A stretch of 32,000 nt of DNA from Dehalococcoidia bacterium (lineage in GTDB: Bacteria > Chloroflexota > Dehalococcoidia > GIF9 > UBA5629), in assembly GCA_050011565.1 (NCBI GenBank), contig JBEKIW010000003.1:133765-165764 (forward strand). The letters run 5' to 3'. Below, piece by piece: positions 12,232 through 31,500 of this stretch; positions within the stretch are counted from its first letter, which is position 1, and each line of letters begins with the position of its first letter. A program made the position numbers and the translations under genes. The notes under the pieces were generated by a model. That model did no database searches, was not told the DNA's origin, and saw only the letters and a program-made list of their open reading frames with translations.

Positions 12232-13437
12232 CTACTCGTGGCGCAGAGATTCGATGGGGTCGAGCCGGGCGGCTCTAAAAGCCGGATAGGTGCCGGATAT
12301 GACGCCGATTCCAATGGACACAGCCAGCGCCAGTATGACAATGCCCGCTGAAATCTGAGCCCCAACGGTTAACTCTCCAAATGCAACGTTCTTCAGGAAC
12401 AACGAGAAGAATAACGCCAGGGCTAAGCCAATCAAACCGCCGGACAGACTCAGTGCCGCTGCTTCAATTAGAAACTGGATTAAAATATCACGCCTTTTAG
12501 CACCGATGGCTTTGCGTATGCCGATTTCTCGTGTGCGTTCGGACACCGAAACCAGCATTATATTCATAATTCCGATGCCGCCTACAAGAAGCGAGATGGC
12601 GCCGACGCTGCTTAAGAAAAAAGAAAAGGCAGCCAGTTGTGATTGCAATTGATTAAGTACATCGCGCATGTCCCTGATCTGGAAATCATCTGAAGCCCCC
12701 GACCCGATAAAATGCCGCGCTCTCATGATGGAGGTTATCTCGGCAATAGCCGCATCCACCTGGTCGGGACTGGCCGCCTTTACCGCAATCTGCTGGATAT
12801 TGTTGCCGCCTGATATTTTGGATTGCATAGTGGTAAGTGGCATCAGTATAAAGCTGTCTCCAGTGAAACCACCCATTTTCGCTACGGCGCCGACAACCTG
12901 GTATCTACCACCGGCGACACGTATGGTCTGGCCCACTGCCGTTTGATTCCCGAATAAGTCCTGGGCCGTCTGCCAGCCGAGCACCACCACATTCTGCCTG
13001 GCTGCCAGGTCCTGGTCGGTTATGAATCTGCCAGCTGAAAGATCATATTTTTTTATCTCACCTATTAACGGCGTTATTCCCGTAGCCTGCACATTTACGT
13101 TATTATTGCCGTAAGATGCACTGACTCCCTTGCTAAGGGTAGGCGCAGCTAGGGCTATCGACGGAGCCAGGGATTTATCTGCCAGCGCCTGCGCATCGTC
13201 AAAAGTCAACGGACGAATAATAGAAACAGTTTTATCTGTAGTGCCGGAAACATAAAGAGCGCTGGCTCCCAGATTTTCAAAAGTCTGCTGCATACTTTTC
13301 TGGAATCCGTTTCCCAGGGCCACCAGCAGGACCACCGCGCTAACTCCGATAATAATGCCCAGCATGGTGAGAGACGACCGCAGTTTATTGGCAAATATCG
13401 ACTGCCAAGCGGTTTTAAGGCTCTCCAGTATATTCAA
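12232..13437 (-). CDS. ABC transporter permease, MacB/FtsX family
   Basis: 401 aa. It has an N-terminal TM helix, a large extracytoplasmic domain and a C-terminal FtsX-type 3-TM bundle (..ERTREIGIRKAIGA...). The start overlaps the ATPase stop by 4 nt. Confidence 0.9.
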   Translation of the reverse strand: MNILESLKTAWQSIFANKLRSSLTMLGIIIGVSAVVLLVALGNGFQKSMQQTFENLGASALYVSGTTDKTVSIIRPLTFDDAQALADKSLAPSIALAAPTLSKGVSASYGNNNVNVQATGITPLIGEIKKYDLSAGRFITDQDLAARQNVVVLGWQTAQDLFGNQTAVGQTIRVAGGRYQVVGAVAKMGGFTGDSFILMPLTTMQSKISGGNNIQQIAVKAASPDQVDAAIAEITSIMRARHFIGSGASDDFQIRDMRDVLNQLQSQLAAFSFFLSSVGAISLLVGGIGIMNIMLVSVSERTREIGIRKAIGAKRRDILIQFLIEAAALSLSGGLIGLALALFFSLFLKNVAFGELTVGAQISAGIVILALAVSIGIGVISGTYPAFRAARLDPIESLRHE

Positions 13438-14120
13438 CGCTTCTTTTCCTCTACTATTTTTCCATCCCTGATATAGATCGTCCTCTCCGTGTAAGAGGCG
13501 ATATCTTCTTCGTGGGTAACGATAACGATAGTAATCCCTTTTTTGCGCTGTTCCAGTAAAACATCCATGATATTGTGGCTGGATTGGGTATCCAGGTTGC
13601 CTGTCGGTTCATCGGCAAGTATTATCCGCGGATTATTTACCAGGGCGCGGGCGATAGCCACTCTCTGCTGTTCGCCGCCAGACATTTCGGTCGGGTGATG
13701 GCGCGCCCTGTTGCCGATGCCTACGGCTTCCAGCGCCGCCATAGCGCCTTGCCGCCTCTGACGGTGGCCGGCATACATCATCGGCAATTCCACGTTCTCC
13801 AGCGCCGTCATTTTAGGCAACAGGTTGTAGGACTGGAAAACAAAACCCAGTTTTCTATTTCTTATCACCGCCAGCTCATTATCGCTGAGGCTGGAGACAT
13901 CCTGACTATCCAGACAGTAAATTCCACCAGAAGGGCGGTCCAGGCAGCCGATTATATTCATAAGCGTAGACTTGCCGGAGCCGGATGGCCCCATGATGGA
14001 AACTACTTCACCTTTCTCGCACCGAAAAGAAATACCGTCCAGGGCATTAACCTTAACCTCTCCAAGGTCATACACCTTGGTCACATCCTTTAATTCAATA
14101 ATGCCATCTGATTCAGCCAT
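13434..14120 (-). CDS. ABC transporter ATP-binding protein (MacB/LolD type)
   Basis: 228 aa. It has Walker A (GPSGSGKST), the ABC signature (MSGGEQQRVAIARAL) and Walker B (IILADEPTGNLD). Confidence 0.93.
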   Translation of the reverse strand: MAESDGIIELKDVTKVYDLGEVKVNALDGISFRCEKGEVVSIMGPSGSGKSTLMNIIGCLDRPSGGIYCLDSQDVSSLSDNELAVIRNRKLGFVFQSYNLLPKMTALENVELPMMYAGHRQRRQGAMAALEAVGIGNRARHHPTEMSGGEQQRVAIARALVNNPRIILADEPTGNLDTQSSHNIMDVLLEQRKKGITIVIVTHEEDIASYTERTIYIRDGKIVEEKKR

Positions 14121-14168
14121 GTCGTAACACCAAATCCAAGAAGATTATACAATATAGAAGCCGGTCTA

Positions 14169-15893
14169 TTAACGTATCGGGATACCTGTACCTCGCGTCC
14201 CCTGCCGAGAGGCACCGTTACTCGTTGTCGGCGGAGTTCCCGTTACCGTGACTTTGTCTCCTTCTTTTAATCCCGATAGCACCTCAGCGTACTGAAAGGT
14301 TTGCTGGCCCAAAGTAACCGGCCTGTATTCGGGCTGTCCCGTCGTTGGGTTGATGACCGCCACCACGGGGCCCTCACGCGTCTCTACAATTACCGATACG
14401 GGCACCAGCAATGCGCCTTTAGCGCTGTATATGCTGATATCGGCAGTGGCGCTTAAGCCACCTCTGAGTTCGACATCAGTCGGGTCCAGCTGAATGGTAA
14501 TAGCAAATTTAATGACGTTGCCGGAAGCTACGCCAAAGGGAGAGATAAATTTAACCGTACCGGTAAATACCTTGTTGGGTATGGCATCCACTGTGATATT
14601 TACCTTTTGCCCGGGTTGCACTTTCATAATGTCGATTTCATCAACCGTTCCTTCGAACCTGATGGAGTTGGTATCAACCAGCGTGATGGCTGTCGTCGAC
14701 GAATAGTTCTGCGCCGAAAGTACGGAGGATTTCTTGAGGTTTGCGCTGACCACAGTGCCATCGGCAGGGGCTATGATGGCCGTATTCATGATGGCCTGCT
14801 TCGCCTGGAATAGAGATATTTGAGCACTTTGAAGGCTGAGGTTGTATTGCTGCAATGTTTGCCAGTTGATGTTTTTCCCGACCACAAAGAGTGACGTCTG
14901 ATTTTCCAGAACGTCCCGGCCGACGAGCAGGTTAAGCTGGGTAATATACAACTTCTTGGCGGCTTCAATCGGCTCGGCGCCGTCCTGTGCCAGATAGTTC
15001 TCCAAATCCTGCAGAGAACGAATAGATGACTGCAGGAAATCAGCGCTGGTAGCGGTATCCGGATATTCGAACATCTCGCTGCCCTTGAGATATACAGTGC
15101 TTTCAGCCAGATTGTAAGCCGTAAACATTTCCTGCTGGGCAGCAGCTAATTTAGACGCCACTTTATCATATGCTCCGACTTTCATATCACTGCTTATGTC
15201 CAAAAGTTTCTGCTGGTACTTCTGCATGTAATCGACCACCGCCGCATCAGTGGGAGTCGGAGATTTAAAGCCGCCTTCGTAAAGGTCAGGATAGTAAGTC
15301 GAGTTTATCTTGGCTCCGGCCAGTGCGGCGGCATCGGGCTTGGATGCGATAAGGTCCGCACCCACTTCGACGTCGAAATAGGTCATTATTAAATCACGAC
15401 CGGCGTCTTTGTAATCCCCCTGCTTGAACTCGTTAACCGCCGTATCCAAATCTTTTCGTGCCTGGTCAAATATGCGGGGCACGCTCAAATCAGGATAAGT
15501 ATAAGGAAGATGGTCGCAGCCCACCGCAGCACTGTCGGTCTTTGACTGCACCGTTATATTATTTTGCGCCGTCTGTACACTTAGCAAGGCGGTTTTAATG
15601 GCATTCCTCTGAGTCGTATCATCGAGCATAGCCAGCAGTGCACCCTGCTTTACCTTATCACCTTCTTCAACAAATATTTGTTGCACCTGCCCGTTGGTGC
15701 CGAAGCGCAGGTCGTACTCATCGGGCATGGTGAGGTGGCCATCGGATGATACATTGATATTCAGGTCTCCCTTTTTTACTTCGAAAACCTGGCCCGGGGT
15801 AGCAGTAGTAGCGGTGCTCTTAGCGCAGGCACCAGCCACTATCGGGAATACGATAACGGCCAGTATCAGTATGCTTATCAGGATTTTTTTCAT
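14169..15893 (-). CDS. HlyD-family membrane-fusion/periplasmic adaptor protein, long form (paralog 1), probable lipoprotein
   Basis: 574 aa. The signal peptide ends in AGAC. The two lipoyl-domain halves (VEEGDKVKQGALLAMLD and IIAPADGTVVS) are separated by about 270 aa. The C-terminal beta-barrel/MP region is closely similar to the upstream paralog. Confidence 0.85.
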   Translation of the reverse strand: MKKILISILILAVIVFPIVAGACAKSTATTATPGQVFEVKKGDLNINVSSDGHLTMPDEYDLRFGTNGQVQQIFVEEGDKVKQGALLAMLDDTTQRNAIKTALLSVQTAQNNITVQSKTDSAAVGCDHLPYTYPDLSVPRIFDQARKDLDTAVNEFKQGDYKDAGRDLIMTYFDVEVGADLIASKPDAAALAGAKINSTYYPDLYEGGFKSPTPTDAAVVDYMQKYQQKLLDISSDMKVGAYDKVASKLAAAQQEMFTAYNLAESTVYLKGSEMFEYPDTATSADFLQSSIRSLQDLENYLAQDGAEPIEAAKKLYITQLNLLVGRDVLENQTSLFVVGKNINWQTLQQYNLSLQSAQISLFQAKQAIMNTAIIAPADGTVVSANLKKSSVLSAQNYSSTTAITLVDTNSIRFEGTVDEIDIMKVQPGQKVNITVDAIPNKVFTGTVKFISPFGVASGNVIKFAITIQLDPTDVELRGGLSATADISIYSAKGALLVPVSVIVETREGPVVAVINPTTGQPEYRPVTLGQQTFQYAEVLSGLKEGDKVTVTGTPPTTSNGASRQGTRGTGIPIR

Positions 15894-15897
15894 CTTA

Positions 15898-17982
15898 TTA
15901 TCTACCCGACGGCGGCGGTGGCCCTCCGACCCCGCGAGGGAAGCCGGTTACGACCGGCGCGCCGGTTATCTTCTCTTGACCTATTACTTTATCGCCCTCT
16001 TTCAAGCCGGACAATACCTCGGCAAATTGCAGGTTTTGACTACCGAGTGTGACCTCCCTTTTCTCCTGCTTGCCTGTAGCTTCATCGACTACCGTAACAA
16101 AAGACCCGGCAGAAGTGGTGGTAACTGCCGACAAGGGCACCAGCAGTACATTGGCCGCACCGGATATGGCGATATCAGCCGTGGCCGTAAGGCCGCCCTT
16201 GAGCGCCACGTCTGTAGGGTCAAGCTGGATGGTTACCGGAAATTTAACGACGTTGCTGGTGTTCGGCGTGCCGAAGGGTGAAATGAATGACACTTTGCCG
16301 GTGAACGTTTTATTCGGTACGGCATCCACGGAAATCGTCGCCTTTTGACCCGTCTTTATTTTCAGAATATCTATCTCGTCGACCTGCCCCTGAAACTTAA
16401 TCTGGCGGGTATCGACAAGTTGAACCGCAGTCTTGGAAGCATAGTCGATAGCGGAGAGCACATCATTTTTCTTGACGCCCACACTTACCACCGTGCCGTC
16501 GAACGGCGCCAGTATTACCGTCTTGAGGAAATTGTCCTTCGAGTTGCCCAGGCCAATTAAAGCGTTTGCCAGGTCCACGTGGTACTGCTGCTCATTTTTC
16601 AGAGACAGGCCATGCTGCAATACATAACCGTTGCTATCCAAAATGCTGTTGCAGATTTGCATGTAATGCAGCGCAATTCGCAGGTTGTCATTTAATTCAG
16701 GTGAGGTTAGTCCGCCGGTCTCTATGCCTTTCAGCGCGGCGTTCAGCTTGTCGGCAGCGGCTCCGTAGAAATACAGGCTTATGTCCTTTCCGTAAACGGT
16801 GGAATAGTTGTGCGCTTTTATCACATTTATATTGTTTCTGACCGCTTTACCTATATCGCCAACCTGCTTCAGCAGTGAGTTGAACATCGGGCTGGCTTGC
16901 TCGCCTTTACCTTGAGCTATCAATCCCCGGACGGTCTCTATATCCGCCTGCCCCTGCTTTATTGTATCCACCACCTGGCGCAGTTGTACGATATAGGAGA
17001 CGGCGAACGACTGGTCCGTATTTATCTCTAGCAATATTATGTCGGTTTCGTTATCGGAGACTAACGGCGCCATGTTGCCCAACCCTGATTTCGGGTTATT
17101 TATGGCGTCTTCCAGTATCTGTATGCAGGCATCCAGGTCGGACAGTGCCACATATAATTCAGATGCCGCCGCGTCATAGCTTTTAATCTGGTACAACATG
17201 TTTGCGCGGTTGACCTCATCCTGCGCCCAATTAAAGGCCGACAGGGCCGTGGCATTCGGATAATAGTATGGAGAACTGGTGCCCAAATTATCACTATTCT
17301 GTTTAAGAGTGTATGTATTTTTGGTTATCGATTGAATTTGTCTATGTGTAGTCTGAAATTTATCACCTGTGTCAAGATCTGGTACCGCAGCGTCTACTGT
17401 AGTATTTGTAATGGTTATTACTTCGGTCACTATCGAGGTACCCGGTTCACCGCTGTCGCTGGTAGTCGTACTTGTTGATGAACTTGTGGTAGGTCCAGAT
17501 GCGAGAGGAGGGGTGGCACTTGAATCGTATACTGTCACGCTTGTTGTGTCGGGAAATGAACCAGAACTGGTAGATGAAGTTTGAAGATTCTTTTCATATA
17601 TATAGTTCCGAAACTGGGGCAGCAGCGGCACGTTTTCATACAGCTTGCTCAATACCGTCTGCACATTATTGTTGGAGGATTCGACGCCCAATTTTTCAGT
17701 AGTATTATTCAGCGTCGCCAGCACAGTCCCTTCTTTAACGAAATCGCCTTCTTCCACGAACACGTCCTGGACATCTCCCGGCGCACCGAAGAGCAAATTG
17801 TACGCCTGAGGCATCACCAGGTTGCCATCAACCGAGGTAGATACCGTCAGATTGCCTGACCGCACGGTAGTCACCTGCGTGGCTGCTGCCGGCGTCGTTG
17901 TTTTTGGAGCGCAGCCAATACCGGAAATAAGCAAAGCAGCTACACAAATAACGGAGGCTAGACTTTTAACTAATTTAGACAT
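15898..17982 (-). CDS. HlyD-family membrane-fusion/periplasmic adaptor protein, very long form (paralog 2), probable lipoprotein
   Basis: The track ORF starts at TTG 18009 (703 aa). I prefer ATG 17982 (MSKLVKSLASVICVAALLISGIGC...), which gives a typical-length signal peptide. The lipoyl halves (VEEGDFVKEGTVLATLN and ILAPFDGTVVS) are separated by about 390 aa, including a Ser/Thr-rich tract. Confidence 0.8.
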   Translation of the reverse strand: MSKLVKSLASVICVAALLISGIGCAPKTTTPAAATQVTTVRSGNLTVSTSVDGNLVMPQAYNLLFGAPGDVQDVFVEEGDFVKEGTVLATLNNTTEKLGVESSNNNVQTVLSKLYENVPLLPQFRNYIYEKNLQTSSTSSGSFPDTTSVTVYDSSATPPLASGPTTSSSTSTTTSDSGEPGTSIVTEVITITNTTVDAAVPDLDTGDKFQTTHRQIQSITKNTYTLKQNSDNLGTSSPYYYPNATALSAFNWAQDEVNRANMLYQIKSYDAAASELYVALSDLDACIQILEDAINNPKSGLGNMAPLVSDNETDIILLEINTDQSFAVSYIVQLRQVVDTIKQGQADIETVRGLIAQGKGEQASPMFNSLLKQVGDIGKAVRNNINVIKAHNYSTVYGKDISLYFYGAAADKLNAALKGIETGGLTSPELNDNLRIALHYMQICNSILDSNGYVLQHGLSLKNEQQYHVDLANALIGLGNSKDNFLKTVILAPFDGTVVSVGVKKNDVLSAIDYASKTAVQLVDTRQIKFQGQVDEIDILKIKTGQKATISVDAVPNKTFTGKVSFISPFGTPNTSNVVKFPVTIQLDPTDVALKGGLTATADIAISGAANVLLVPLSAVTTTSAGSFVTVVDEATGKQEKREVTLGSQNLQFAEVLSGLKEGDKVIGQEKITGAPVVTGFPRGVGGPPPPSGR

Positions 17983-18017: not shown

Positions 18018-18052
18018 ACTCTAACAGGGAAATATTAAGATATTATTAAGAT
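18018..18052 (-). promoter_or_regulatory. tandem 11-bp direct repeat plus -10 element upstream of the adaptor/ABC operon (site a)
   Basis: The minus strand reads ATCTTAATAAT ATCTTAATATT tccctgt TAGAGT. This is the same architecture as sites b, c and d (22630, 22114, 23217). Confidence 0.5.
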
Positions 18053-18115
18053 AGCAATTTTTAGGCGATAATAAAAGTGAAACGACTTTCTATAACCTAT
18101 TTTGCGCAAGTTAAT

Positions 18116-18145
18116 ATTATACGTCTCCAACCGTTTATTTGGCAA
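18116..18145 (-). promoter_or_regulatory. second candidate sigma70-type promoter upstream of the adaptor/ABC operon
   Basis: On the minus strand: TTGCCA (18145..18140), an 18-nt spacer, then TATAAT (18121..18116). It lies about 65 nt upstream of the direct-repeat site. Confidence 0.4.
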
Positions 18146-18212
18146 ACCAATCCCTGCTCGACCCACTGCCTGTATTCGTAACCTCATTAAATCGCTTCAT
18201 CATTCGATGCCC

Positions 18213-18244
18213 GTAAAAAGAAGAGGGGAAGAATTCCTCCCCCC
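18213..18244 (-). terminator. intrinsic terminator after the 18278..19045 gene
   Basis: GC-rich hairpin GGGGAAGAATTCCTCCCC (18224-18241, one mismatch). On the minus-strand RNA it is followed by UCUUCUUUUU. Confidence 0.5.
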
Positions 18245-18277
18245 TTCTACGACTGACTCCGGCTGCAGATAATGTTT

Positions 18278-19045
18278 CTAATATGTCGTTGGACTGGCAC
18301 CTGTCTGGGGGTTTTGAGTTCCTTGAAATCTATGCCACGGCCCTCCACCCCGTTGCCCAGGTGATTTAGGTTCAGGCAGTGGAACATCGGGTTTTGCCGC
18401 CAGCCATGCCTTGAAAGCATCATACTGCGCCTGGGTTATTTTGCCGTCTTTCAACAGCTGGTCTAAGTTTCCGGGGCGGACTCCTACTCCGGGGACATCC
18501 GGCCTGGAGGCAAGCCATGCCTTCAAACTATCGGCCTGCTCTTGAGTCAATTTGCCATTTTCCACCAGGTTCTGAAGTCCGGCGTCGGGTCTTTGCGCAC
18601 CCCATCCCGGTCCAGGCTGTCCCAACGGCAACGGAACATCCGGTTTCGCATCCATCCACGCTTTGTACGCTTCATACTGCTCTTGAGTTATTTTGCCGTC
18701 TTTTAATAGCTGGTCCATGTTTCTGGGATTGACTCCAGGGAGAACCGGTTTGGAGTCCAGCCAGGCCTTCAATTTATCGGCCTGGTCTTGTGTCAGCTTC
18801 CCGCTGGTTACCAGGTTCTGAAGCCCGGTATTCTGCCTTTCCGTACGCATTTCTGAAACGGCTTGCTTGAACGCATCCGTTAACTTCTGTACGTCGATGT
18901 TCAATATCTGGGCAACCCTGGCTAGTAATCCGTTTGACTTTCCCTGGGTGTTTTGCCCATCATCGGCAAGTACTACACCTGCAGAACCAGCCATCATCGT
19001 AACCGCCAGTATGCTTGATAACAGCAATTTCGTAATTTTCCTCAC
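18278..19045 (-). CDS. secreted LTXXQ-motif repeat protein (CpxP/Spy-like?), internally duplicated
   Basis: 255 aa. The start is GTG with an AAGGAGG SD. It has an N-terminal signal peptide, four (L/I)TQxQ motifs, and two units of about 69 aa (GLQNLV..GKLTQ.QAD.LKAWL.S.P..PGV......DQLLKDGKITQ.QY.A.KAW..AKPDVPLP). Confidence 0.75.
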   Translation of the reverse strand: MRKITKLLLSSILAVTMMAGSAGVVLADDGQNTQGKSNGLLARVAQILNIDVQKLTDAFKQAVSEMRTERQNTGLQNLVTSGKLTQDQADKLKAWLDSKPVLPGVNPRNMDQLLKDGKITQEQYEAYKAWMDAKPDVPLPLGQPGPGWGAQRPDAGLQNLVENGKLTQEQADSLKAWLASRPDVPGVGVRPGNLDQLLKDGKITQAQYDAFKAWLAAKPDVPLPEPKSPGQRGGGPWHRFQGTQNPQTGASPTTY

Positions 19046-19115
19046 TTTTTTAGCCTCCTTGGTTTTACTTGAACAGTTATTATAACAATAGATTGTTTCC
19101 CGAAATTAGTCTTTT

Positions 19116-19136
19116 TGTAAAATCTATGTAAAATCC
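19116..19136 (-). promoter_or_regulatory. tandem 11-bp direct repeat, variant core (GATTTTACATA GATTTTACAAA on the minus strand)
   Basis: Seen directly. It lies about 31 nt upstream of a TATAAT (19084..19079) that precedes the 19045 gene. The core TTTTACA differs from TTAAYA by one position or an indel. Confidence 0.3.
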
Positions 19137-19155
19137 AGCGGAGCTTAAAAGAATC

Positions 19156-20871
19156 TTATGAAGAACCGGGGCTTGACCCCCAGTCACCTTCTTCGCGATA
19201 GACATACTTTCCGCCCCTGAGCCAGGAGGCACCTGCCGCAATGAGACACATCACTATGGAGAAGATTAAAACTTCGACCAGCCCATGATCGAACGCACCG
19301 GATATTAGCTGAGGGAAGAATGTCCTAGAGGTAATGGTGGCTGCCTGAGCTGGCGGCAAGGCATGAAGCACCTGCGGGGGAATCAGTGTGCCGAGAGGAT
19401 TGTAGCCCAGGAACGCGGCGAATAAATAGGTTATGGCCGGCACATCAGCTAGCCGCTGCGCAATCGGCGCCGGCATGCCCTGCTGCGTCAGCCCGCCGTA
19501 CATAGCGGACGGCACCAAGGCGTTCATACCCAATATCATGAAAGAGAAGAAGATGGTTATCGATAAGGGCATTCCGGCATTAATCAGCGTGGCTCGCATG
19601 CCGGAACTCACACCACGATGCCGTGCTGGTACGCTGTTCATAATAGCCGCTGTATTGGGCGCGGTAAACATGCCCATAGCCACACCGTTAAGCAGAATTA
19701 ATACAGCGAAGGCAGGATAGGAGAAATTTACCGGCAGGACTATCATCAGCCCGAAGCTGATGGCAGCCAGCAGCATGCCGCCGGTGGCAAAATAGCGCGC
19801 ACCGTATCTATCGGAAAGGCGACCGAAAAGAGGTCCGGCTACGAGAAACCCGATGCTCATGGGTACCATGTAAATTCCGGCCCACAGAGGTGTTACCTCG
19901 AAGTCGTAGCCGCGCATAGGCAGCCAGATACCCTGCAGCCAGATTACCAGCATAAACATCAGCCCGCCTCGCGCCACCGAAGCCAGGAACCCGGCGACAT
20001 TGCCGGCAGCGAAAGCCCGGATGCGGAATAAGTTAAGCCGGAACATCGGCACCCGCACCCGTCGTTCAATAAAAATAAAAGCAACTAAGAGAACAATTCC
20101 TCCTATAAGCATGCCTAAAACAAAGGGTGTGGTCCAGCTCATCAAAGAAGCACCGCTCGGATTGATACCGTAGGTAATGCCGGTCAATAACATGCTGAGA
20201 CCGGCGGCAAAGGTGATGTTGCCCAACCAGTCAATCGGCTCGCGTTTCCTGATACCGATTTCCTTAAGCGACAGGTAAGCCCAAACGGTTCCTATAATAC
20301 CTATGGGCACATTGAACAGAAAGACCCAACGCCATCCTATTTCCGCCAGCAATCCACCGACCAGTATGCCCAGTAAACTACCGGCGATGCCGGCCACCTG
20401 GTTTAGTCCTAGAGCCATACCGCGCTGCTCCACCGGAAAAGCGTCGGTGAGTATGGCTGCCGAATTAGCGAACAGGAACGCGCTGCCGATTCCCTGGACC
20501 ACGCGAAAGATAATCAACTCCACAGCTCCGGCAGGCCCGGTGCTCCAAGTGACGGCACATAGAAGTGAACCAATAGTGAAGATGGCGAACCCGAGGTTAT
20601 ACATTCGGGTCCGGCCAAAAAGGTCGCCCAGCCGGCCGAAGGTGACCACGAGAACTGCCAGTACCAGCATATAACCTACTAGCAGCCAGAGCAAGTAGGT
20701 GAAGCTGTTAGGGGCCAGTGGGTTAATGCCGATGCCCCTAAAGATGACCGGAAGCGCCAGGATTAAGCTGGATGAATTGAGGAAAGCCAGCAGTACAGCT
20801 AATGTCGTATTCGACAGGGCAATCCACTTATAAGTACTGCTAACCGGTGATTGGGTCGAGTCTATTTCCAT
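19156..20871 (-). CDS. MFS transporter, DHA2 (EmrB/QacA-like, about 14 TMS) family
   Basis: 571 aa and highly hydrophobic throughout. It has the MFS motif A-like sequence FGRLGDLFGRTRMY after TM2. The length fits 14-TMS drug:H+ antiporters. Confidence 0.88.
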   Translation of the reverse strand: MEIDSTQSPVSSTYKWIALSNTTLAVLLAFLNSSSLILALPVIFRGIGINPLAPNSFTYLLWLLVGYMLVLAVLVVTFGRLGDLFGRTRMYNLGFAIFTIGSLLCAVTWSTGPAGAVELIIFRVVQGIGSAFLFANSAAILTDAFPVEQRGMALGLNQVAGIAGSLLGILVGGLLAEIGWRWVFLFNVPIGIIGTVWAYLSLKEIGIRKREPIDWLGNITFAAGLSMLLTGITYGINPSGASLMSWTTPFVLGMLIGGIVLLVAFIFIERRVRVPMFRLNLFRIRAFAAGNVAGFLASVARGGLMFMLVIWLQGIWLPMRGYDFEVTPLWAGIYMVPMSIGFLVAGPLFGRLSDRYGARYFATGGMLLAAISFGLMIVLPVNFSYPAFAVLILLNGVAMGMFTAPNTAAIMNSVPARHRGVSSGMRATLINAGMPLSITIFFSFMILGMNALVPSAMYGGLTQQGMPAPIAQRLADVPAITYLFAAFLGYNPLGTLIPPQVLHALPPAQAATITSRTFFPQLISGAFDHGLVEVLIFSIVMCLIAAGASWLRGGKYVYREEGDWGSSPGSS

Positions 20872-20921
20872 TTGAAAAGAAGAAACTACTTGCCTTTCTA
20901 TAGGGTCAAGCCAAACGGAAT

Positions 20922-20950
20922 ATTATCATCTATTTCACTTGCCCTGTCAA
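20922..20950 (-). promoter_or_regulatory. candidate promoter of the MFS gene
   Basis: On the minus strand: TTGACA (20950..20945), a 17-nt spacer, then GATAAT (20927..20922). It lies about 50 nt upstream of the ATG at 20871. Confidence 0.5.
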
Positions 20951-21066
20951 CAAACTTTTGTGGGTTGCTCAGTGTAGAAAGAAATGGCTCAGTCTGGGCA
21001 GTATTTAGTTGTTGTTATGTTTTTAATGACAACGAGTTCTCGTTTAGAGAATTATTTACTGGTTAT

Positions 21067-21264
21067 TTAACCAAGCTGGTTTCTGAACCAGGCGGCTATT
21101 ACCGATAATATAATGCTGAATGAGCCGAAACCAAAAGCAGCAGTCATCCTGGACCCGCTCGATAACATGGCTAACCCGACGAATCCCATAACCAGTCCCA
21201 GGCAGCCCACCACGAAGAGTATCCACACAGATATGGTCACCAGCGCTAACAACATTTTCGGCAT
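21067..21264 (-). CDS. small hypothetical membrane protein (2 TM helices)
   Basis: 65 aa with two hydrophobic segments. An AAGGAGG SD lies about 10 nt upstream of the ATG. Its G+C content is like the bulk genome. Confidence 0.55.
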   Translation of the reverse strand: MPKMLLALVTISVWILFVVGCLGLVMGFVGLAMLSSGSRMTAAFGFGSFSIILSVIAAWFRNQLG

Positions 21265-21457
21265 TGATTTTCTACCTCCTTTTTCTAACAGCGAATTAGC
21301 TTGGAAAAATTAACCTGACTGAGCTATTTCCACCAACGGACAGTGCGTGTATTTACACTATATTACTCTCCATTAGTAACCTTAGCAATATCTCTAGTAC
21401 ACGACTTCTTCACTTCAATGCCGGCATATCAATGAATAAAATGGACAAATGTTTCAA

Positions 21458-21916
21458 TTAATATACCTGACAATCTATTTCCTTAAGTGATTGAGGAGGG
21501 ACCGGTTCATCCTCTCTTGTTGATGGCAAAACAATTTCCTCCTTTAATTGTTTTCGCAAATTTATTGCTTCGCTCCAATCCAATTTAGCTATTTCACCAA
21601 TATATTCCTGAATTCGCTGATCACCGGAAAGAGCGTAGGTGGTAAGGCCATTACTATCGTGCTGGCCTATAAGAATGCCTTTTTCGACCAAGGCTGTCAT
21701 TGCATCCCTCAAGTTAATCCTTGCAGTATTCAACGCCCTGGCGACGGTGTAAAGACTCAATTTTGACTTGGGATGTCTTCCCCAGAAGCAGAGTAGCCTG
21801 AATTGTATACCACTGCAACCGATGTCTTTGAGAAATAATAGTAGATCGTAATTCACTATCCGATTTATTTTGTAGTCAGTTACCATGTCTGTTTTCTCCT
21901 TTTTCACAACTTTCAT
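21458..21916 (-). CDS. winged helix-turn-helix (MarR/ArsR-like) DNA-binding protein
   Basis: The central segment LSLYTVARALNTARINLRDAMTALVEKGILIGQHDSNGLTTYALS has a typical wHTH layout. A more likely start is the second ATG at 21886, preceded by an AAGGAG SD, giving 142 aa. The gene is AT-rich. Confidence 0.55.
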   Translation of the reverse strand: MKVVKKEKTDMVTDYKINRIVNYDLLLFLKDIGCSGIQFRLLCFWGRHPKSKLSLYTVARALNTARINLRDAMTALVEKGILIGQHDSNGLTTYALSGDQRIQEYIGEIAKLDWSEAINLRKQLKEEIVLPSTREDEPVPPQSLKEIDCQVY

Positions 21917-22113
21917 CTATACTTCGTCAACCCACTGATACGTCAATGGTAACAAGCAAATATTAATTTCTCGTTAAGATTTTAAGCTGGAACTATACAC
22001 TCTCGCTTACAATCAGCTGCCATATTTATCGCGGCTGCTAAGTATCAGCGTAAGTCTCATGGTGCGATAGATTACTACTCAGGCAACCTAGTCTTAAGAG
22101 ACACATCACATAA

Positions 22114-22148
22114 AAATTAACAGTTTTTTAACATTTGATGGTTATAAT
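22114..22148 (+). promoter_or_regulatory. tandem 11-bp direct repeat plus -10 element (site c) upstream of the zinc-ribbon gene
   Basis: AAATTAACAGT TTTTTAACATT tgatggt TATAAT. The two TTAACA cores lie at 22117-22122 and 22128-22133, exactly 11 bp apart. Confidence 0.5.
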
Positions 22149-22228
22149 TAAAGCATGATGATTCCACTCTTGACTGTATATCATTTGAACAAAGTTATGA
22201 GCGTATCCGTAAAAAGAGGATAACTCTT

Positions 22229-22612
22229 ATGCGGCAGATATATTTCTGTCCTAATTGTAGGGCACCAATCGGTTACAGTGATAGGTTTTGCGGTAACTGC
22301 GGTATTAACTTGAAGTGGGAGATACGACAAGTCTCACCTCACTCAATACCTTTATGGTACGATTGTCAGAATCCCGGCCAACAACAAACGTCGAGTAGTC
22401 AGCAGCCACAGTGTAATCAGCCACCCTATAATCAGGCATTGGTATCGGGATATGCGAATCAAAACCAGCAGCAATATGTGCATGGTAATCGTGCCACTAC
22501 CTCGTCAGGTAAGCGCTCACCGGTTGATGGCACCGCAAAACCAATAAGTTCTGAGATTTCCAAGCTGCTGGCAGACTTCTTCAACAAGCAGGCTAAATGC
22601 AGCTTAAGATAA
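22229..22612 (+). CDS. zinc-ribbon protein with Q/N/S-rich low-complexity C-terminal region
   Basis: 127 aa. The N-terminus CPNC-x12-CGNCG is a classic 4-Cys zinc ribbon. It is followed by a QQQTSSSQQPQCNQPPYNQ...NQNQQQ tract. Confidence 0.6.
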   Translation: MRQIYFCPNCRAPIGYSDRFCGNCGINLKWEIRQVSPHSIPLWYDCQNPGQQQTSSSQQPQCNQPPYNQALVSGYANQNQQQYVHGNRATTSSGKRSPVDGTAKPISSEISKLLADFFNKQAKCSLR

Positions 22613-22629
22613 GTGCCCGATACCAAAAA

Positions 22630-22664
22630 ATCTTAATCAGATTTTAATATTAGGTTGCTATGCT
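22630..22664 (+). promoter_or_regulatory. tandem 11-bp direct repeat plus -10 element (site b) upstream of the second LTXXQ gene
   Basis: ATCTTAATCAG ATTTTAATATT aggttgc TATGCT. It aligns position by position with site a. Confidence 0.5.
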
Positions 22665-22699
22665 TAAATCATCTACATAAGAAAGGAGGTGACACAGAA

Positions 22700-23128
22700 A
22701 TGCGGCTGAACAAAAAATTGATTATTATTGCGGTATCAGTGGCTGTGCTGCTAATCGGGAGCATCGCCGGGGTTGTACTGGCTGCAGGCAACGACAACAG
22801 CAATCAGTCTAATGCTCAAGGCGAGGACCTGTTGGCAAAGGTCTGCACCATATACCAGCAGAACACGGGCAACGCTATTGATGAAACAGCGCTCAAAAAC
22901 GCTTTCACTCAGGCTGAAAATGAGGCGCAGTTGGCGCGGGAGCAAACCCGCCTTAATGACCAGGTAACGCAGGGCAAGATAACCCAGGATCAGGCTGACC
23001 AGTATCTAAAGTGGTGGCAGTCGAGGCCCAATTTACCGGGTGGATTTGGCTTTGGTGGACCTGGTGGTTTCCCCGGTCGGGGTGCACCGTGCGTCCCACC
23101 TGCAACAGCTCCTAGCACGACACAATAG
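22700..23128 (+). CDS. secreted LTXXQ-motif protein (single-unit paralog of 18278..19045) with Gly/Pro-rich tail
   Basis: I place the start at ATG 22700 (MRLNKKLIIIAVSVAVLL...), 9 nt after an AAAGGAGGTG SD. The track ORF begins 15 codons earlier without an SD. It shares LLAKV..I....D...L..AF.QA and GKITQDQADQYLKWWQSRPNLPG with the 255-aa paralog. Confidence 0.75.
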   Translation: MRLNKKLIIIAVSVAVLLIGSIAGVVLAAGNDNSNQSNAQGEDLLAKVCTIYQQNTGNAIDETALKNAFTQAENEAQLAREQTRLNDQVTQGKITQDQADQYLKWWQSRPNLPGGFGFGGPGGFPGRGAPCVPPATAPSTTQ

Positions 23129-23157
23129 CTGACCAAACCTAGGACTTCTGCCTATAT

Positions 23158-23190
23158 TAGAGAGGGAGAGAAATATTCTCTCCCTCTCTA
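23158..23190 (+). terminator. intrinsic terminator after the LTXXQ gene
   Basis: Perfect 14-bp stem TAGAGAGGGAGAGA-aatat-TCTCTCCCTCTCTA, followed by an A/T-rich tract (attattgtatat). Confidence 0.6.
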
Positions 23191-23216
23191 ATTATTGTAT
23201 ATAGGGCTTAAAAATA

Positions 23217-23251
23217 AACTTAACAATTTTTTAACATTTGTGTTATAACAT
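23217..23251 (+). promoter_or_regulatory. tandem 11-bp direct repeat plus -10 element (site d) upstream of the response regulator gene
   Basis: AACTTAACAAT TTTTTAACATT tgtgt TATAAC. The alternative reading is a 7-nt spacer followed by TAACAT. The TTAACA cores lie at 23220-23225 and 23231-23236. Confidence 0.5.
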
Positions 23252-23281: not shown

Positions 23282-23977
23282 ATGGCCAGTAAAAGGGTTT
23301 TGGTAGTTGATGACGATGTGAAGACAGTAGAACTGGTCAAACTTTACCTGAGCCGGGATGGCTACAGCGTTATGACTGCCTACGATGGTACTGAGGCTCT
23401 GCGCCTGTCTCGTCAAAGTCACCCCGACCTTATCGTCCTGGACTTAATGCTGCCAGGGACGGATGGCCTTGAGGTCTGCCGTAGTATTAGAAGTGAATCC
23501 GATGTACCAATAATTATGCTTACTGCCAGAACTACGGACGAAGATAAGCTAACCGGTCTGAATTTAGGGGCTGATGATTATGTGTCCAAGCCCTTTAGCC
23601 CGAGGGAGCTGGCAGCCAGAGTCCGGACAGTTCTCAGGCGCTTGCCTGGTGAACGTGGCCCTGCAGAGATTAAGCGGGGCGAACTTGTCCTGAATTTTCT
23701 CAAGCAGGAAGTATCTTTTGCTGGCAAGCCTCTAAATCTTACGCCGGTTGAATTCAAGTTGCTGGGAGTTCTCGTTAGAGAAGCTGGAAGAGTTTTCAGC
23801 CGGGCAGAACTTGTTGAAAAAGCCCTGGGCTACGACTACAGGGGCTTTGACCGTACCATTGATGTGCATATTCTGAACCTGCGTCGGAAACTGGAGCCCG
23901 ACCCCGTACACCCTAAGTACATAAAGACAGCATACGGCGCTGGTTACAGGTTCTCAGAGGTCCAAGGTGATACATAG
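23282..23977 (+). CDS. OmpR/PhoB-family response regulator
   Basis: 231 aa. The receiver domain has VLVVDDD and [10 protein letters not shown] with the phospho-acceptor Asp. The C-terminal winged-helix effector domain has LTPVEFKLL...[13 protein letters not shown]...[12 protein letters not shown]. Confidence 0.93.
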
Positions 23978-25349
23978 TTTACGATTTCGCCTCCTGATGG
24001 CTTTCGCCCTCGTAATACTGGTCGCAGTCGGAGCCATATATTTATTTGTCAGCCATGCCAGCGTGGTTGAAATCGGGCGGTTTGGCGAAAGAAGCGAACA
24101 AGCACGCTTTGGAAGATTAGCCTTCGAGCTAAATCGGTATTACCACGACCATGGGGACTGGGAGGGCATTCAACCCTATGTGGAACAGTGGGGCAGTCTC
24201 TACGGACGACGGATTATACTTACGGACTCCAGTGGGCTAGTAGTAGCAGATTCCCAAAAAGAATTGTTGGGGCAGCAATACTTTCCTGATACACCAGGTA
24301 TGCGCTTCCCGCCACCGCCAGAAGGAGGTCCCGGTACACCAGGCATGAACTCCCCGTCACCGCCGGAAGGAGACAGCGTGGGAACTTTATACATGAGCCC
24401 CGAACCATCAGCGGTTTTCCCTTCACCACTGAGTCTTTCCCAGGCAGTGAGTCATTACCTTCTCTGGGGTGCACTGCTGGCGGCTGCCGTTGCTTTCTTA
24501 ATAACCTATTTTCTGTCCCGGCGAATTTCAGCACCGGTCAAGGCTCTTACCGTTGCTGCCAGACAGATGGGCCAGGGAGACCTGTCTCAGAGGGTACTGT
24601 CTAAGGACAAAGGTGAGCTAGGCGAGCTGGCTCAAGCCTTTAACACCATGGCGGAAAATCTGGAGCGAGGTGAGTTCCTTCGCCGCAATATGATAGCTGA
24701 TATTGCCCACGAGTTGAGAACGCCACTATCCAATCTCAAAGGTTATCTGGAAGCAATGACCGATGGTGTTATAAAGCCAGGTTCAGGCACAATCCGCTCC
24801 CTTGACGAAGAAGCAAACCTCTTATCGCGAATGGTTGACGACCTGCAAGAGTTGAGCCTGGCTGAAGCCGGCGAGCTCAAGCTGGATTGTCAGATACAAG
24901 ATATCACCAAGTTATTAAAACAGACGGTAGCTGTGAGGCAGACTCAGGCGGCGGCAAAAGGAGTATCATTATCCGCTGACCTGCCTAGAAAACTGCCACG
25001 GGTGAAAATTGACACCCATCGTATTAACCAGGTCTTGCTCAATCTTATAGATAACGCCATAACTCACACACCAAAAGGCGGTATCATAACCATAACCGCG
25101 AGGAAGCTTGATCAATGGCTGGAGATCAGCGTGGAAGATACCGGAGAGGGCATTTCTGCTAAGGACTTGCCGAATGTCTTTGAGCGTTTCTACAGGGTGG
25201 ATAAATCGCGAGCCAGGGCAACCGGAGGTGCGGGCCTGGGGCTTGCTATTGCCAAAAGCCTGCTAGAGGCACATGGAGGCAAGATTGAAGTACGGAGCGA
25301 AGAAGGTAAAGGTAGCCGCTTCTCCTTCACGCTACCCGTCGCACCGTAG
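23967..25349 (+). CDS. sensor histidine kinase (2 TM, HAMP, HisKA, HATPase_c)
   Basis: 460 aa. It has the H-box [10 protein letters not shown], the N-box [14 protein letters not shown]1 (DTGEGI) and G2 ([11 protein letters not shown]). It overlaps the RR gene by 11 nt. Confidence 0.92.
24291..24380 (+). repeat. imperfect 2 x 45-bp tandem duplication inside the kinase sensor region
   Basis: Unit 1 is 24291-24335 ([15 protein letters not shown]) and unit 2 is 24336-24380 ([15 protein letters not shown]). The similarity at nucleotide level is visible by eye. Confidence 0.6.
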
Positions 25350-25618: not shown

Positions 25619-26071
25619 ATGATGAAGAGAGTCTATGTGCAAGAGGAAATCTGCATGGGCTGCGGCCTCTGCCGGGTTTACTGCCAGACAGAGCATTCCA
25701 GAACTAAAGATATAATCAAAGCCTTTAAGAAAGAGAGCCCGCGTTCGGTGCCCCGTATTCGCGTAGAAAGAAAAGGTGAAATTTCCTTCTCCCTTCAGTG
25801 CCGGCATTGCGACGAGCCGTGGTGCGTTTACTCCTGTCTAACAGGGGCGATGCAAAAGGACCCGACAACAGGTATAGTTACCGTCGATACCCAAAAGTGT
25901 ATGGGCTGTTGGACATGTATACTAGCTTGCCCTAGCGGAGCATTGACCAGAGACAATGGTGAAAAAGTTGTCGCCAAGTGTGACCTGTGCCCCGGACGTG
26001 ATGTGCCGGCTTGCGTGGCTAACTGCCCGAATGAAGCACTGGTATTTATAGAAGATGGTGTAGGTAAATAA
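25619..26071 (+). CDS. 4Fe-4S multi-cluster ferredoxin-domain protein (electron-transfer subunit)
   Basis: 150 aa with four Cys clusters (CMGCGLCRVYC, CRHCDEPWCVYSC, CMGCWTCILACP, CDLC...PACVANCP). Confidence 0.85.
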   Translation: MMKRVYVQEEICMGCGLCRVYCQTEHSRTKDIIKAFKKESPRSVPRIRVERKGEISFSLQCRHCDEPWCVYSCLTGAMQKDPTTGIVTVDTQKCMGCWTCILACPSGALTRDNGEKVVAKCDLCPGRDVPACVANCPNEALVFIEDGVGK

Positions 26072-26088
26072 CTTGCAGGGATAAAGAG

Positions 26089-26715
26089 TTGAAAAAAAAG
26101 ATTGCTATAGTTGACTATGGTGCCGGCAACCTGGGCAGCGTGGCTAATGCCATTGTCAAACTCGGTTATGAGCCAAATGTTACCGGCAAGCCGTCGGAAG
26201 TGCTCAGCGCTGCAGCAGTTATACTGCCCGGCGTCGGCGCGGCAGGTGACGCCATGGAAAATCTAAAGGTAATAGGTATGGCTGATGTGATTCGCCAACT
26301 GATTGAAGCCAGACGACCTCTGTTCGCTGTCTGTGTCGGACTGCAACTCCTCTTTTCCGGCACCGAGGAGGGTGGCTGGCATGAATGTTTAAACGTGATT
26401 CCCGGTACCGTAAAGAGATTACCTGCGGGCCTCAAGGTTCCTCATATGGGTTGGAATCAAGTCAAGCAGATAGTCGGGCATAAGGTCTTCGATGCTATAC
26501 CGGATGAAGCTAATTTCTATTTCGTTCACAGCTATTATGTCGACCCGGAGGATAAGTCGGTTATAGCCGGCACCACAGATTACGGGATATCTCTTAGCAG
26601 CGTGATTATCAAAGACAATCTGATAGCGACCCAGTTTCACCCGGAAAAAAGCGGCAACTGGGGTTTAAAGATGTATTCTAATTTTTTGAAAAAGGCACTG
26701 GGCCGGGAAGGATGA
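26089..26715 (+). CDS. hisH: imidazole glycerol phosphate synthase, glutamine amidotransferase subunit
   Basis: 208 aa, TTG start. It has IAIVDYGAGNLGSV, the catalytic Cys in FAVCVGLQLL, VPHMGWN, and QFHPEKSG. Confidence 0.9.
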   Translation: MKKKIAIVDYGAGNLGSVANAIVKLGYEPNVTGKPSEVLSAAAVILPGVGAAGDAMENLKVIGMADVIRQLIEARRPLFAVCVGLQLLFSGTEEGGWHECLNVIPGTVKRLPAGLKVPHMGWNQVKQIVGHKVFDAIPDEANFYFVHSYYVDPEDKSVIAGTTDYGISLSSVIIKDNLIATQFHPEKSGNWGLKMYSNFLKKALGREG

Positions 26716-26716
26716 T

Positions 26717-28015
26717 ATGGCAACTAAAAAAGCTCTCAGAACTGAATATCTAATCATAGGCAACTCAGCCGGCGGCATCGGAGCTGCTGAAGCAATACGT
26801 GAGACTGACAAGAAGAATTCCATAACCATAGTCTCCGATGAACCGTACCCAGCATATTCCCGTCCGCTTATCTCTGAATATCTGGCTTGCGAGCGGACCG
26901 TTGAGGAGATGCTTTTCCGTCCTGCTGATTTCTACAAACAAAATAATATCGACCTTATGCCGGGCAAGAGCGTAAAAAGCCTGGACTTGCCCCGACGGCT
27001 TGTGGAACTGAACAGTGGCGAAAAAATCTCATGGCACAAGCTATTACTCTCCACCGGCGGCATACCTATCGTCCCGAAGATGAAGGGAATAAATAAAAAA
27101 GGCGTATTTAAGTTCCTGACGCTCGACGATGCCAAGGCAATTGATAAATTCTTGAAGGATTATAGTCGCGCTGTGGTTATAGGCGGTGGTCTTATCGGCG
27201 TGAGTGTCAGCGAAGCTCTGACGAAACGCGGTGTGTCAGTCACCATAATAGAAATGAAAGACAGGGTGTTGAATACCATACTTGATGAACGTGCATCTGC
27301 AATAGCCGAAGAAATGCTCACCGAAGCCGGCATCAGGGTCATTGTCAACAACACGGTTTCGGAAGTTATCGGGGAAAATACTGTCGAGGGCGTCGTCCTG
27401 GACAGCGGTGAGACAATACCGTGTGACCTGGTGGTCATAGCTATAGGCGTTTTGCCACGGACTGAACTTGTGCAAGGTACTAAAATAAAAGTGAATCGCG
27501 GCATTGTAGTTGACCGATACATGGCCACCAGTTTTCCGGATGTTTACTCCTGCGGAGATGTCGCTGAAGCTTACGATTTCGTTTTGGATACAAACCGGCT
27601 GACACCTATCTGGCCAAATGCTTATATCGGCGGCAGAGTGGCCGGCTGTAACATGACCGGTGTCAAAAAAGAATATCTCGGCGGCACGGCTATGAATTCA
27701 ATCAACTATTTCGGCCTCGATATAACCACAGCCGGAATTGTAAATCCTCCTGACGTCAACAACTACGAGGTCATAACCAGGAACCAGGATGGCGTCTATC
27801 AGAAGGTGATGTTAAGCGATGGGCTTATTGTGGGTATGGTCTTTGTTAAGGATATTGAGAAGTCGGGTATGATTTTTGGCTTAATGAGAGACAAGGTGAA
27901 TGTCAGCGACTTTAAGGACGCACTTCTGGCTGACGACTTTGGGCTGGCATATCTGCCCCAGGAGCTATTGCGGGAGCGTTTAGGAAATGTGTCTCTGCTG
28001 GTGGCTAAACATTAA
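26717..28015 (+). CDS. FAD/NAD(P)-dependent pyridine nucleotide-disulfide-type oxidoreductase (probable NAD(P)H-oxidising partner of the split glutamate synthase)
   Basis: 432 aa. It has two dinucleotide folds (IIGNSAGGIGAAEA and VVIGGGLIGVSVSEA) and the GD motif CGDVAE. Confidence 0.85.
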   Translation: MATKKALRTEYLIIGNSAGGIGAAEAIRETDKKNSITIVSDEPYPAYSRPLISEYLACERTVEEMLFRPADFYKQNNIDLMPGKSVKSLDLPRRLVELNSGEKISWHKLLLSTGGIPIVPKMKGINKKGVFKFLTLDDAKAIDKFLKDYSRAVVIGGGLIGVSVSEALTKRGVSVTIIEMKDRVLNTILDERASAIAEEMLTEAGIRVIVNNTVSEVIGENTVEGVVLDSGETIPCDLVVIAIGVLPRTELVQGTKIKVNRGIVVDRYMATSFPDVYSCGDVAEAYDFVLDTNRLTPIWPNAYIGGRVAGCNMTGVKKEYLGGTAMNSINYFGLDITTAGIVNPPDVNNYEVITRNQDGVYQKVMLSDGLIVGMVFVKDIEKSGMIFGLMRDKVNVSDFKDALLADDFGLAYLPQELLRERLGNVSLLVAKH

Positions 28016-28031
28016 ATCCTGGAGTATTTAG

Positions 28032-29180: not shown

Positions 29181-29205
29181 AATTGTTAAAAAGGGGTTTA
29201 AGCTG

Positions 29206-29979: not shown

Positions 29980-29993
29980 CAGGGAGAACATAG

Positions 29994-31499: not shown

Positions 31500-31500
31500 A

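Follow-up and report, generated by a model that had tools for sequence, protein, structure and literature searches.

We describe a candidate regulon in a 32-kb stretch of a metagenome-assembled genome from an uncultured Dehalococcoidia bacterium (Chloroflexota); this whole stretch is called the window below. Five intergenic regions of the window share one architecture, in which two adjacent 11-bp units are followed by a short spacer and a −10-like hexamer, and each is oriented toward a downstream gene whose start codon lies 30–80 nt away. These five sites probably bind the OmpR/PhoB-family response regulator encoded beside them, which is predicted to act there as an activator. An earlier note on this DNA had recognized four of the sites (a–d) and assigned them to the regulon of that regulator. 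All four are present exactly as it described, letter for letter and position for position, but the window holds five, site e having been missed, and the proposed regulon gains support from tests of specificity and of conservation. Overall, the sites are an ordinary, well-supported example of a regulator class marking its target genes, and they introduce no new regulatory principle or mechanism.

The specificity of the motif can be stated quantitatively. A log-odds weight matrix was built from the eight 11-bp units of sites a–d, and two adjacent units were scored on both strands at a threshold of at least 20 bits. Five positions in the window reached this threshold, and the next independent position scored 10.7 bits. 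Site e, whose units occupy 21980..21959 on the minus strand and whose architecture is that of sites a–d, scored 22.1 bits with a matrix built without it and is thus a blind prediction. In leave-one-out scoring, every site fell within the top 5 of 63,958 positions. A first-order Markov model of the window predicts 0.02 matches of at least 20 bits per 32 kb, and a model trained on the local AT-rich intergenic DNA predicts 0.01 per 1375 bp. The simple pattern TTAAYA-N5-TTAAYA was observed three times in the window, against an expectation from shuffled sequences of 0.01. In 234 kb of orthologous Dehalococcoidia loci, all 24 matches above threshold fell at five promoter classes: those of the regulator and kinase genes, of p142 (a small membrane-anchored protein), of an exporter operon, of a winged-helix open reading frame (ORF) and of a zinc-ribbon ORF. 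Together with the five matches in the window, every tandem match therefore lies at one of these promoters, and none lies elsewhere. Unrelated paralogue loci totaling 995 kb contained three matches. A motif-only scan of metagenomes with the pattern TTAAYA-N5-TTAAYATT-N7-TAnnnT returned at least 120 loci; among the matches listed, most are chance matches in AT-rich DNA (<40% G+C) and at least eight belong to this system. That scan is unsuitable as a genome-wide test of specificity.

The geometry of the sites is equally constrained. Across 32 instances, namely the five window sites and 27 orthologous ones, two 11-bp units are always present as direct repeats. Within the units, the proximal TTAA and A9 never vary, and the distal TTAA is nearly invariant. 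In the hexamer 7 nt downstream of the units, position 2 is always A and position 6 always T (32 of 32 cases), and both the orientation and the 7-nt distance are constant throughout. In the window, the uniform spacer leads to TAGAGT, TATGCT, TATAAT, TAACAT and TACCAT. At site a, for instance, the units span 18052..18031, the spacer 18030..18024, with a TGT end that makes an extended −10, and the hexamer 18023..18018. Such a TGn end is found at three of the five window sites and at almost all orthologous p142 sites. A promoter scan of the five sites found no −35 hexamer 16–18 nt upstream of the −10 and no sigma-70 −35/−10 pair; by contrast, the adjacent major facilitator superfamily (MFS) gene has TTGACA-17-GATAAT. 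The units would occupy roughly −41 to −20 if the start of transcription is about 7 nt past the hexamer. There are 9 nt between the 17-bp core and the −10, which places the core essentially where the pho box lies in Escherichia coli pho promoters. Fixed orientation, fixed distance and the lack of a −35 element are what an activator substituting for the −35 contact would produce.

Two further points of geometry concern individual sites. For site d, the earlier note preferred TATAAC as the −10 and gave a 7-nt spacer followed by TAACAT as the alternative. It is the alternative that is conserved: the last base of the TATAAC reading varies among C, A, T and G in orthologues, whereas the hexamer after the 7-nt spacer keeps A2 and T6. 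It is less likely that site d is an ordinary promoter in which the distal TTAACA serves as −35 element, at a distance of 18 nt from TGn-TATAAC. The −10 region of site d, at the regulator's own promoter, reads (A/G)TGTTATAACAT in the window (23240..23251) and upstream of the regulator gene in L007, L012, L014, L087 and L199. In several orthologues this region is a perfect 12-bp palindrome containing an inverted and a direct copy of the TAACAT half-site, which could permit autorepression when the regulator is abundant. The division of the cores into TTAATA and TTAACA sub-types, which had been taken as a possible sign of affinity tuning, recurs in most orthologues but not all, the p142 site being mostly TTAAT and the regulator site mostly TTAAC; tuning of affinity by these sub-types is speculative.

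Conservation across species provides the second line of support. More than 15 orthologous loci were compared, with regulators 68–92% identical to that of the window. They include one genome per species at 69–79% regulator identity (L007–L018), closer homologues at 84–92% (L087–L090), and loci recovered from the motif-only scan (L093, L096, L115, L132, L144, L178, L187 and L199). In the alignments, the flanks are unrelated or diverged while the units and the hexamer are retained, and the sites persist before orthologous regulator genes, p142 genes and exporter operons. The regulator-gene site lies 50–70 nt upstream in L007, L009, L012–L014, L016–L018, L087–L089, L096, L115, L132, L144, L187 and L199. 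The p142 site is kept wherever a p142 orthologue adjoins the regulator gene, in 11 aligned loci and in L096, L132, L178 and L187. Site e is kept in L004/L005, L087 and L088, and site c in L004/L005 and L087.

The exporter-operon site is kept in eight loci, including L087, L089/L090, L008, L014, L093, L096 and L187, and it follows its operon through three gene arrangements. In the window and in L087 the operon is 5 kb away on the opposite strand; in L008, L014, L089/L090, L096 and L187 it directly follows the kinase gene; and in L093 it is divergent from another target. In L013, the first adaptor gene begins 45 nt after the kinase gene, which indicates that the exporter joined the regulator operon. 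The L093 locus carries a back-to-back pair of sites at 7671..7757, one facing the adaptor–ABC–MacB operon and the other a 1016-aa secreted protein with no Pfam match, possibly a further regulon member in that lineage. In L109, L112 and L114 (45–55% G+C), TTAACAGGATyTTAAyATT with a TAnnnT hexamer stands upstream of secreted or solute-binding-like proteins, and these could be further targets of a related regulator.

The proposed binder has the features of its family. Pfam recognizes Response_reg (9.6e-33) and the winged-helix output domain Trans_reg_C (5.4e-26), and the acceptor Asp54 aligns with the acceptor-Asp region of BaeR and MtrA. Its recognition helix (…(N/K)LRRKLE) is almost constant in all orthologues, with substitutions only in L018 and L096. 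The kinase ORF overlaps the regulator's stop codon and encodes HAMP, HisKA and HATPase_c domains; by inspection, two membrane helices flank an extracytoplasmic loop of ~140 aa, and domain searches of the kinase found no PAS domain. Among solved structures, BaeR is the best match for the regulator, and the DNA-binding domain taken alone is not especially close to any solved regulator. Assignment to a named equivalog (MtrA, RpaB, PhoB, BaeR or YycF) was rejected, all scores being below cut-off. The winged-helix-like ORF was rejected as the binder because tblastn did not detect it in the distant loci L007–L018, which keep the motif. The identical regulator protein is present on metagenome contigs of up to 453 kb, and hundreds of clusters of homologues occur at 82–92% identity, Dehalococcoidia or Chloroflexi where named. 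An archaeal origin of the window, with TATA/BRE promoters, was considered on account of the split glutamate synthase and NrpR-like genes beyond the kinase gene, and was rejected because homologues carry Dehalococcoidia or Chloroflexota names. Literature searches on DUF2680, or on Dehalococcoides regulators with direct repeats, yielded nothing relevant.

These promoters are most likely activator-dependent ones of the pho-box type. The partner kinase would sense an extracytoplasmic or envelope signal through its loop and phosphorylate Asp54. The phosphorylated regulator would bind as a dimer, head to tail, on the two 11-bp units with their TTAAYA-N5-TTAAYA core. The occupied units would stand in for the −35 element that is missing before the TAnnnT hexamer, itself mostly TGn-extended, and the bound dimer would recruit RNA polymerase as PhoB does at the pho box. 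Through site d, the regulator's own operon would be positively autoregulated. The induced targets would be the membrane-anchored, DUF2680-like p142 and the MacB-type ATP-binding cassette (ABC) exporter with its two large adaptors, to which this lineage alone would add the winged-helix-like and zinc-ribbon proteins. By analogy, the physiological role is likely to be an envelope-stress or detoxification response.

It is useful to set this system beside characterized ones. The spy, mdtABCD and cpxP genes are members of the BaeSR and CpxAR regulons, BaeSR controlling mdtABCD, acrD and spy. The circuit logic is similar, in that an autoregulated OmpR-type system would control an efflux pump together with a small helical extracytoplasmic protein whose gene adjoins the regulator genes; in addition, BaeR is the best structural match, as noted above, and BaeS_SmeS is the model that covers most of the kinase. 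BaeSR is also reported to regulate MacAB-TolC in Acinetobacter (PMC4498774, in excerpt). The scores fall well short of equivalence, however, at 227 against a cut-off of 380 for BaeR, 263 against 500 for BaeS_SmeS and 252 against 603 for BaeS. Moreover, p142 has no LTXXQ, CpxP or Spy match, and the host belongs to the class Dehalococcoidia of the Chloroflexota.

A second parallel is offered by HssRS–HrtAB and the Bce systems, in which a two-component system stands beside a MacB-fold (FtsX/MacB) ABC exporter for detoxification. HssR binds a direct repeat in the hrtAB promoter. HssRS induces the HrtBA exporter (PMC11237747, in excerpt). Here, in contrast, two large YknX/HlyD-type adaptors belong to the exporter, the kinase is built with a large extracytoplasmic loop and not for intramembrane sensing, and p142 is an extra conserved partner. 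A third parallel lies in the motif itself. The WalR/VicR consensus is TGTWAH-N5-TGTWAH, and VicR footprints include TATTAA half-sites as well (PMC4168254). The reverse complement of sites c and d, TGTTAA-N5-TGTTAA, fits that consensus, in which 5 bp separate two hexamers. Relative to the promoter, the sites described here have one fixed orientation, whereas those of VicR are found on both strands; no cell-wall hydrolase is among the targets; and the proteins score below the WalRK equivalog cut-offs (regulator, 217 against 340 for YycF; kinase, 274 against 725 for WalK).

The most constant partner in the regulon is p142, whose gene is almost always directly upstream of the regulator and kinase genes and always behind its own regulator-type promoter. 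The family comprises ~90 clusters, of which the few named ones are Dehalococcoidia, and the members examined lie in Dehalococcoidia-type loci. The protein consists of an N-terminal membrane anchor, a three-helix core with an invariant GKITQDQADQYLKWWQSRP block, and a Gly-rich tail. The earlier note had labeled it an LTXXQ protein, a label without support: Pfam gives no LTXXQ match even at E ≤ 5, and the fold search lends no support. Indeed, p142 matches nothing in Pfam or NCBIfam. Its orthologues show weak DUF2680 matches only, and p142 resembles the neighboring protein with four DUF2680 repeats. In an AlphaFold2 model, the predicted local distance difference test (pLDDT) is 72–88 for the three-helix core and 60.5 overall, which is moderate confidence. 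A Foldseek search of this model against the Protein Data Bank (PDB) gave no match with E < 1, and given the model's moderate confidence a remote kinship is possible. A CpxP/Spy-like identity was set aside after Pfam, NCBIfam, structure prediction and Foldseek all gave nothing.

A more ambitious proposal, which we regard as rather unlikely, would join p142 and the motif. In it, p142 would be the obligatory third component of a Dehalococcoidia-specific signaling module, acting perhaps as an extracytoplasmic co-sensor or as a feedback inhibitor of the kinase, a CpxP-like role without homology. The regulator would have retained an ancestral PhoP/WalR-type specificity, but its control would have shifted from phosphate or cell-wall functions to an exporter. 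Were this true, and were a true PhoB also encoded in the genome, two regulons would share one box.

The direction of regulation could be the opposite of that proposed. As a repressor, the same regulator would block RNA polymerase from repeats lying over the −35 and spacer region, and at site a it would also stop transcripts arriving from upstream; we consider this very unlikely. The repeats do overlap the core promoter region, and an inverted half-site copy lies over the −10 hexamer of site d. The consensus-like promoter that had been noted upstream of site a is also present, at 18145..18116 on the minus strand (TTGCCA-18-TATAAT, 11 of 12 matches), ~70 nt from the site and with a counterpart in L087 (TTGCTA-17-TATAAT). 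However, the promoters in question have no −35 hexamer of their own, which leaves little to repress, and the orientation and spacing that hold at every instance are those expected of an activator in contact with polymerase. The suggestion that site a is an operator or roadblock for the upstream promoter is unlikely for a related reason. Exporter sites keep their own xAnnnT hexamer in eight of eight loci, with or without an upstream promoter; most of these loci lack a consensus promoter upstream and have nothing but read-through from the kinase gene. The 18145..18116 promoter is thus more likely a basal promoter than a roadblock target, and it probably provides basal transcription of the exporter operon.

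An alternative that leaves activation in place would change the binder or the signal. The sites would be Pho boxes, either because this system is itself a phosphate-starvation regulator or because they are bound by a separate regulator of PhoB/PhoP type, which would place the cluster in a Pho regulon. Direct repeats of 11 bp make up PHO boxes, two such repeats in E. coli, and Bacillus subtilis PhoP binds TT(A/T/C)ACA units at 11-bp periodicity (PMC11870197). The likeness to the present sites is close: direct repeats with an 11-bp period, a TTAACA half-site identical to a Bacillus unit, placement in the −35 position at a fixed short distance from the −10, and a regulator of the OmpR/PhoB family, which one source even annotates as 'PhoP'. 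In the motif-only scan, at least six matches from other organisms (L125, L135, L139, L183, L197 and L202) sit beside or close to an unrelated kinase gene, in five cases no more than ~50 nt from its end, and precede PstS/PstC-like or PhoU_div+PHO4 phosphate genes; the half-site and period are therefore those of Pho boxes in other phyla.

Nevertheless, a Pho identity is decidedly improbable. Half of the units here read TTAATA, one base off, and two units are present where Bacillus has four. The predicted targets encode an exporter and small envelope proteins instead of functions in phosphate acquisition; the gene lists and tblastn tables of the window and the orthologous loci examined contain no pst, pho or pit gene; and what constantly accompanies the motif is the regulator's own gene. 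Against PhoB models the regulator falls short of the cut-offs (TIGR02154, 228 against 296; NF053854, 192 against 270), the PhoBR equivalog NF007546 gives 170 against 471, and the kinase, being without a PAS domain, matches PhoR models in their catalytic core only. As an observation on other organisms, TTAACATTAACTTAACATTG is located between a histidine-kinase gene, whose end lies ~40–50 nt before it in L197 and L202, and PhoU_div+PHO4 genes. The sites in L125, L139, L197, L202, L183, L135 and L171 appear to be the Pho boxes of other organisms; some precede PstS-type or ABC-permease (PstC-like) genes, and one precedes a secreted protein that is porin-like by eye only. Finally, the repeats might be chance features of intergenic DNA rich in A+T, or generic A/T tracts upstream of promoters that nothing binds specifically. 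This idea draws on the AT-richness of the motif and on the chance-like character of most motif-only matches listed, but it is effectively refuted by the low expectation under the intergenic-trained model, the blind prediction of site e, position-specific conservation inside diverged flanks and the absence of off-target matches in the orthologous loci.

Several observations nonetheless weigh against activation by the adjacent regulator. The matrix scan for sites of this lineage was confined to the window and the 234 kb of orthologous neighborhoods. A second regulator with the same specificity may exist in the same genome, since Pho boxes in other phyla have this half-site and period. In L010, L011 and L015, which are at 74–79% regulator identity and lack p142, only the proximal unit and the hexamer stand before the regulator gene. 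Lastly, the inverted half-site copy that overlaps the −10 hexamer of site d is partial, and repression at high regulator levels is possible there.

The activator-dependent regulon proposed here may be relevant in several ways. First, for a Dehalococcoidia lineage that is abundant and uncultured and has no genetics, it supplies concrete predictions of the motif, the promoter geometry and the targets. Second, it would tie the uncharacterized p142 family and the unusual two-adaptor MacB exporter to one signaling pathway. Finally, the apparent reuse of a Pho-box-type half-site for non-phosphate targets calls for caution in motif-based regulon annotation of metagenomes.

The sites and genes discussed are collected in Table 1. 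The gene calls of the earlier note were borne out by Pfam for the OmpR-type regulator, the kinase, the two adaptors, the ABC ATPase, the MacB permease and the zinc ribbon. The remainder of the window holds housekeeping metabolism genes, and an Rfam search of the window gave no match.

Table 1. Predicted regulator sites and associated features of the window
Feature	Positions	Strand	Sequence or evidence	Remarks
Site a	18052..18018	−	ATCTTAATAAT ATCTTAATATT tccctgt TAGAGT	Promoter of adaptor–adaptor–ABC–MacB operon
Site b	22630..22664	+	ATCTTAATCAG ATTTTAATATT aggttgc TATGCT	Promoter of p142; TGC = extended −10
Site c	22114..22148	+	AAATTAACAGT TTTTTAACATT tgatggt TATAAT	Promoter of zinc-ribbon gene, back to back with site e
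Site d	23217..23251	+	AACTTAACAAT TTTTTAACATT tgtgtta TAACAT	Promoter of regulator/kinase operon
Site e (new)	21980..21946	−	ATCTTAACGAG AAATTAATATT tgcttgt TACCAT	Promoter of winged-helix-like ORF
Exporter operon	12232..17982	−	Pfam: two HlyD/YknX-type adaptors, ABC ATPase, MacB_PCD+FtsX permease	
MacB-type permease	12232..13437	−	MacB_PCD+FtsX	
ABC ATPase	13434..14120	−	Pfam	
Second adaptor	14169..15893	−	HlyD/YknX-type	574 aa
First adaptor	15898..17982	−	HlyD/YknX-type	694 aa
Protein with four DUF2680-like repeats	18278..19045		Pfam	
MFS transporter	19156..20871		Pfam	
Winged-helix-like ORF	21458..21886	−	Weak GntR match, E = 0.056	142 aa; target of site e, lineage-specific
Zinc-ribbon protein	22229..22612	+	Pfam	127 aa; target of site c, lineage-specific regulon member
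p142	22700..23128	+	No Pfam match	142 aa; membrane-anchored, DUF2680-like
Terminator-like hairpin	23156..23192	+		Between p142 and regulator promoter
OmpR/PhoB-family response regulator	23282..23977	+	Response_reg + Trans_reg_C	231 aa; proposed binder
Sensor histidine kinase	23967..25349	+	HAMP, HisKA, HATPase_c	460 aa

Equivalent GC-rich hairpins occupy the position of the terminator-like hairpin in orthologues. The two tandem adaptors beside the MacB-type pump are unusually long, at 694 and 574 aa in the window and 591 and 565 aa in L089 (12251-15729). As far as is known, Dehalococcoidia are single-membrane organisms. The pairing of the two long adaptors is conserved.

A different 11-bp tandem repeat, GATTTTACATA GATTTTACAAA (GATTTTACA twice), lies at 19127..19106 on the minus strand before the gene for the protein with four DUF2680 repeats, 29 nt upstream of an extended −10, TGTTATAAT. 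Among the loci fetched, L001/L002 alone share this exact pattern, and at all sites examined those two agree with the window. Another regulator may bind this repeat. A hydrophobic 65-aa ORF with a strong Shine-Dalgarno sequence (21067..21264, minus strand), situated between the genes for the MFS transporter and the winged-helix-like protein, has no regulator-type site in front of it and is likewise called a gene in metagenome records. On the 3′ side of the kinase gene (25619..32000 in the window; 12338-20008 in L001) is a split, archaeal-style glutamate synthase set, with GATase_2, Glu_synthase and GXGXG on separate proteins, and it is followed by an NrpR-like regulator (WHD_RNase_R + NRD1_2).

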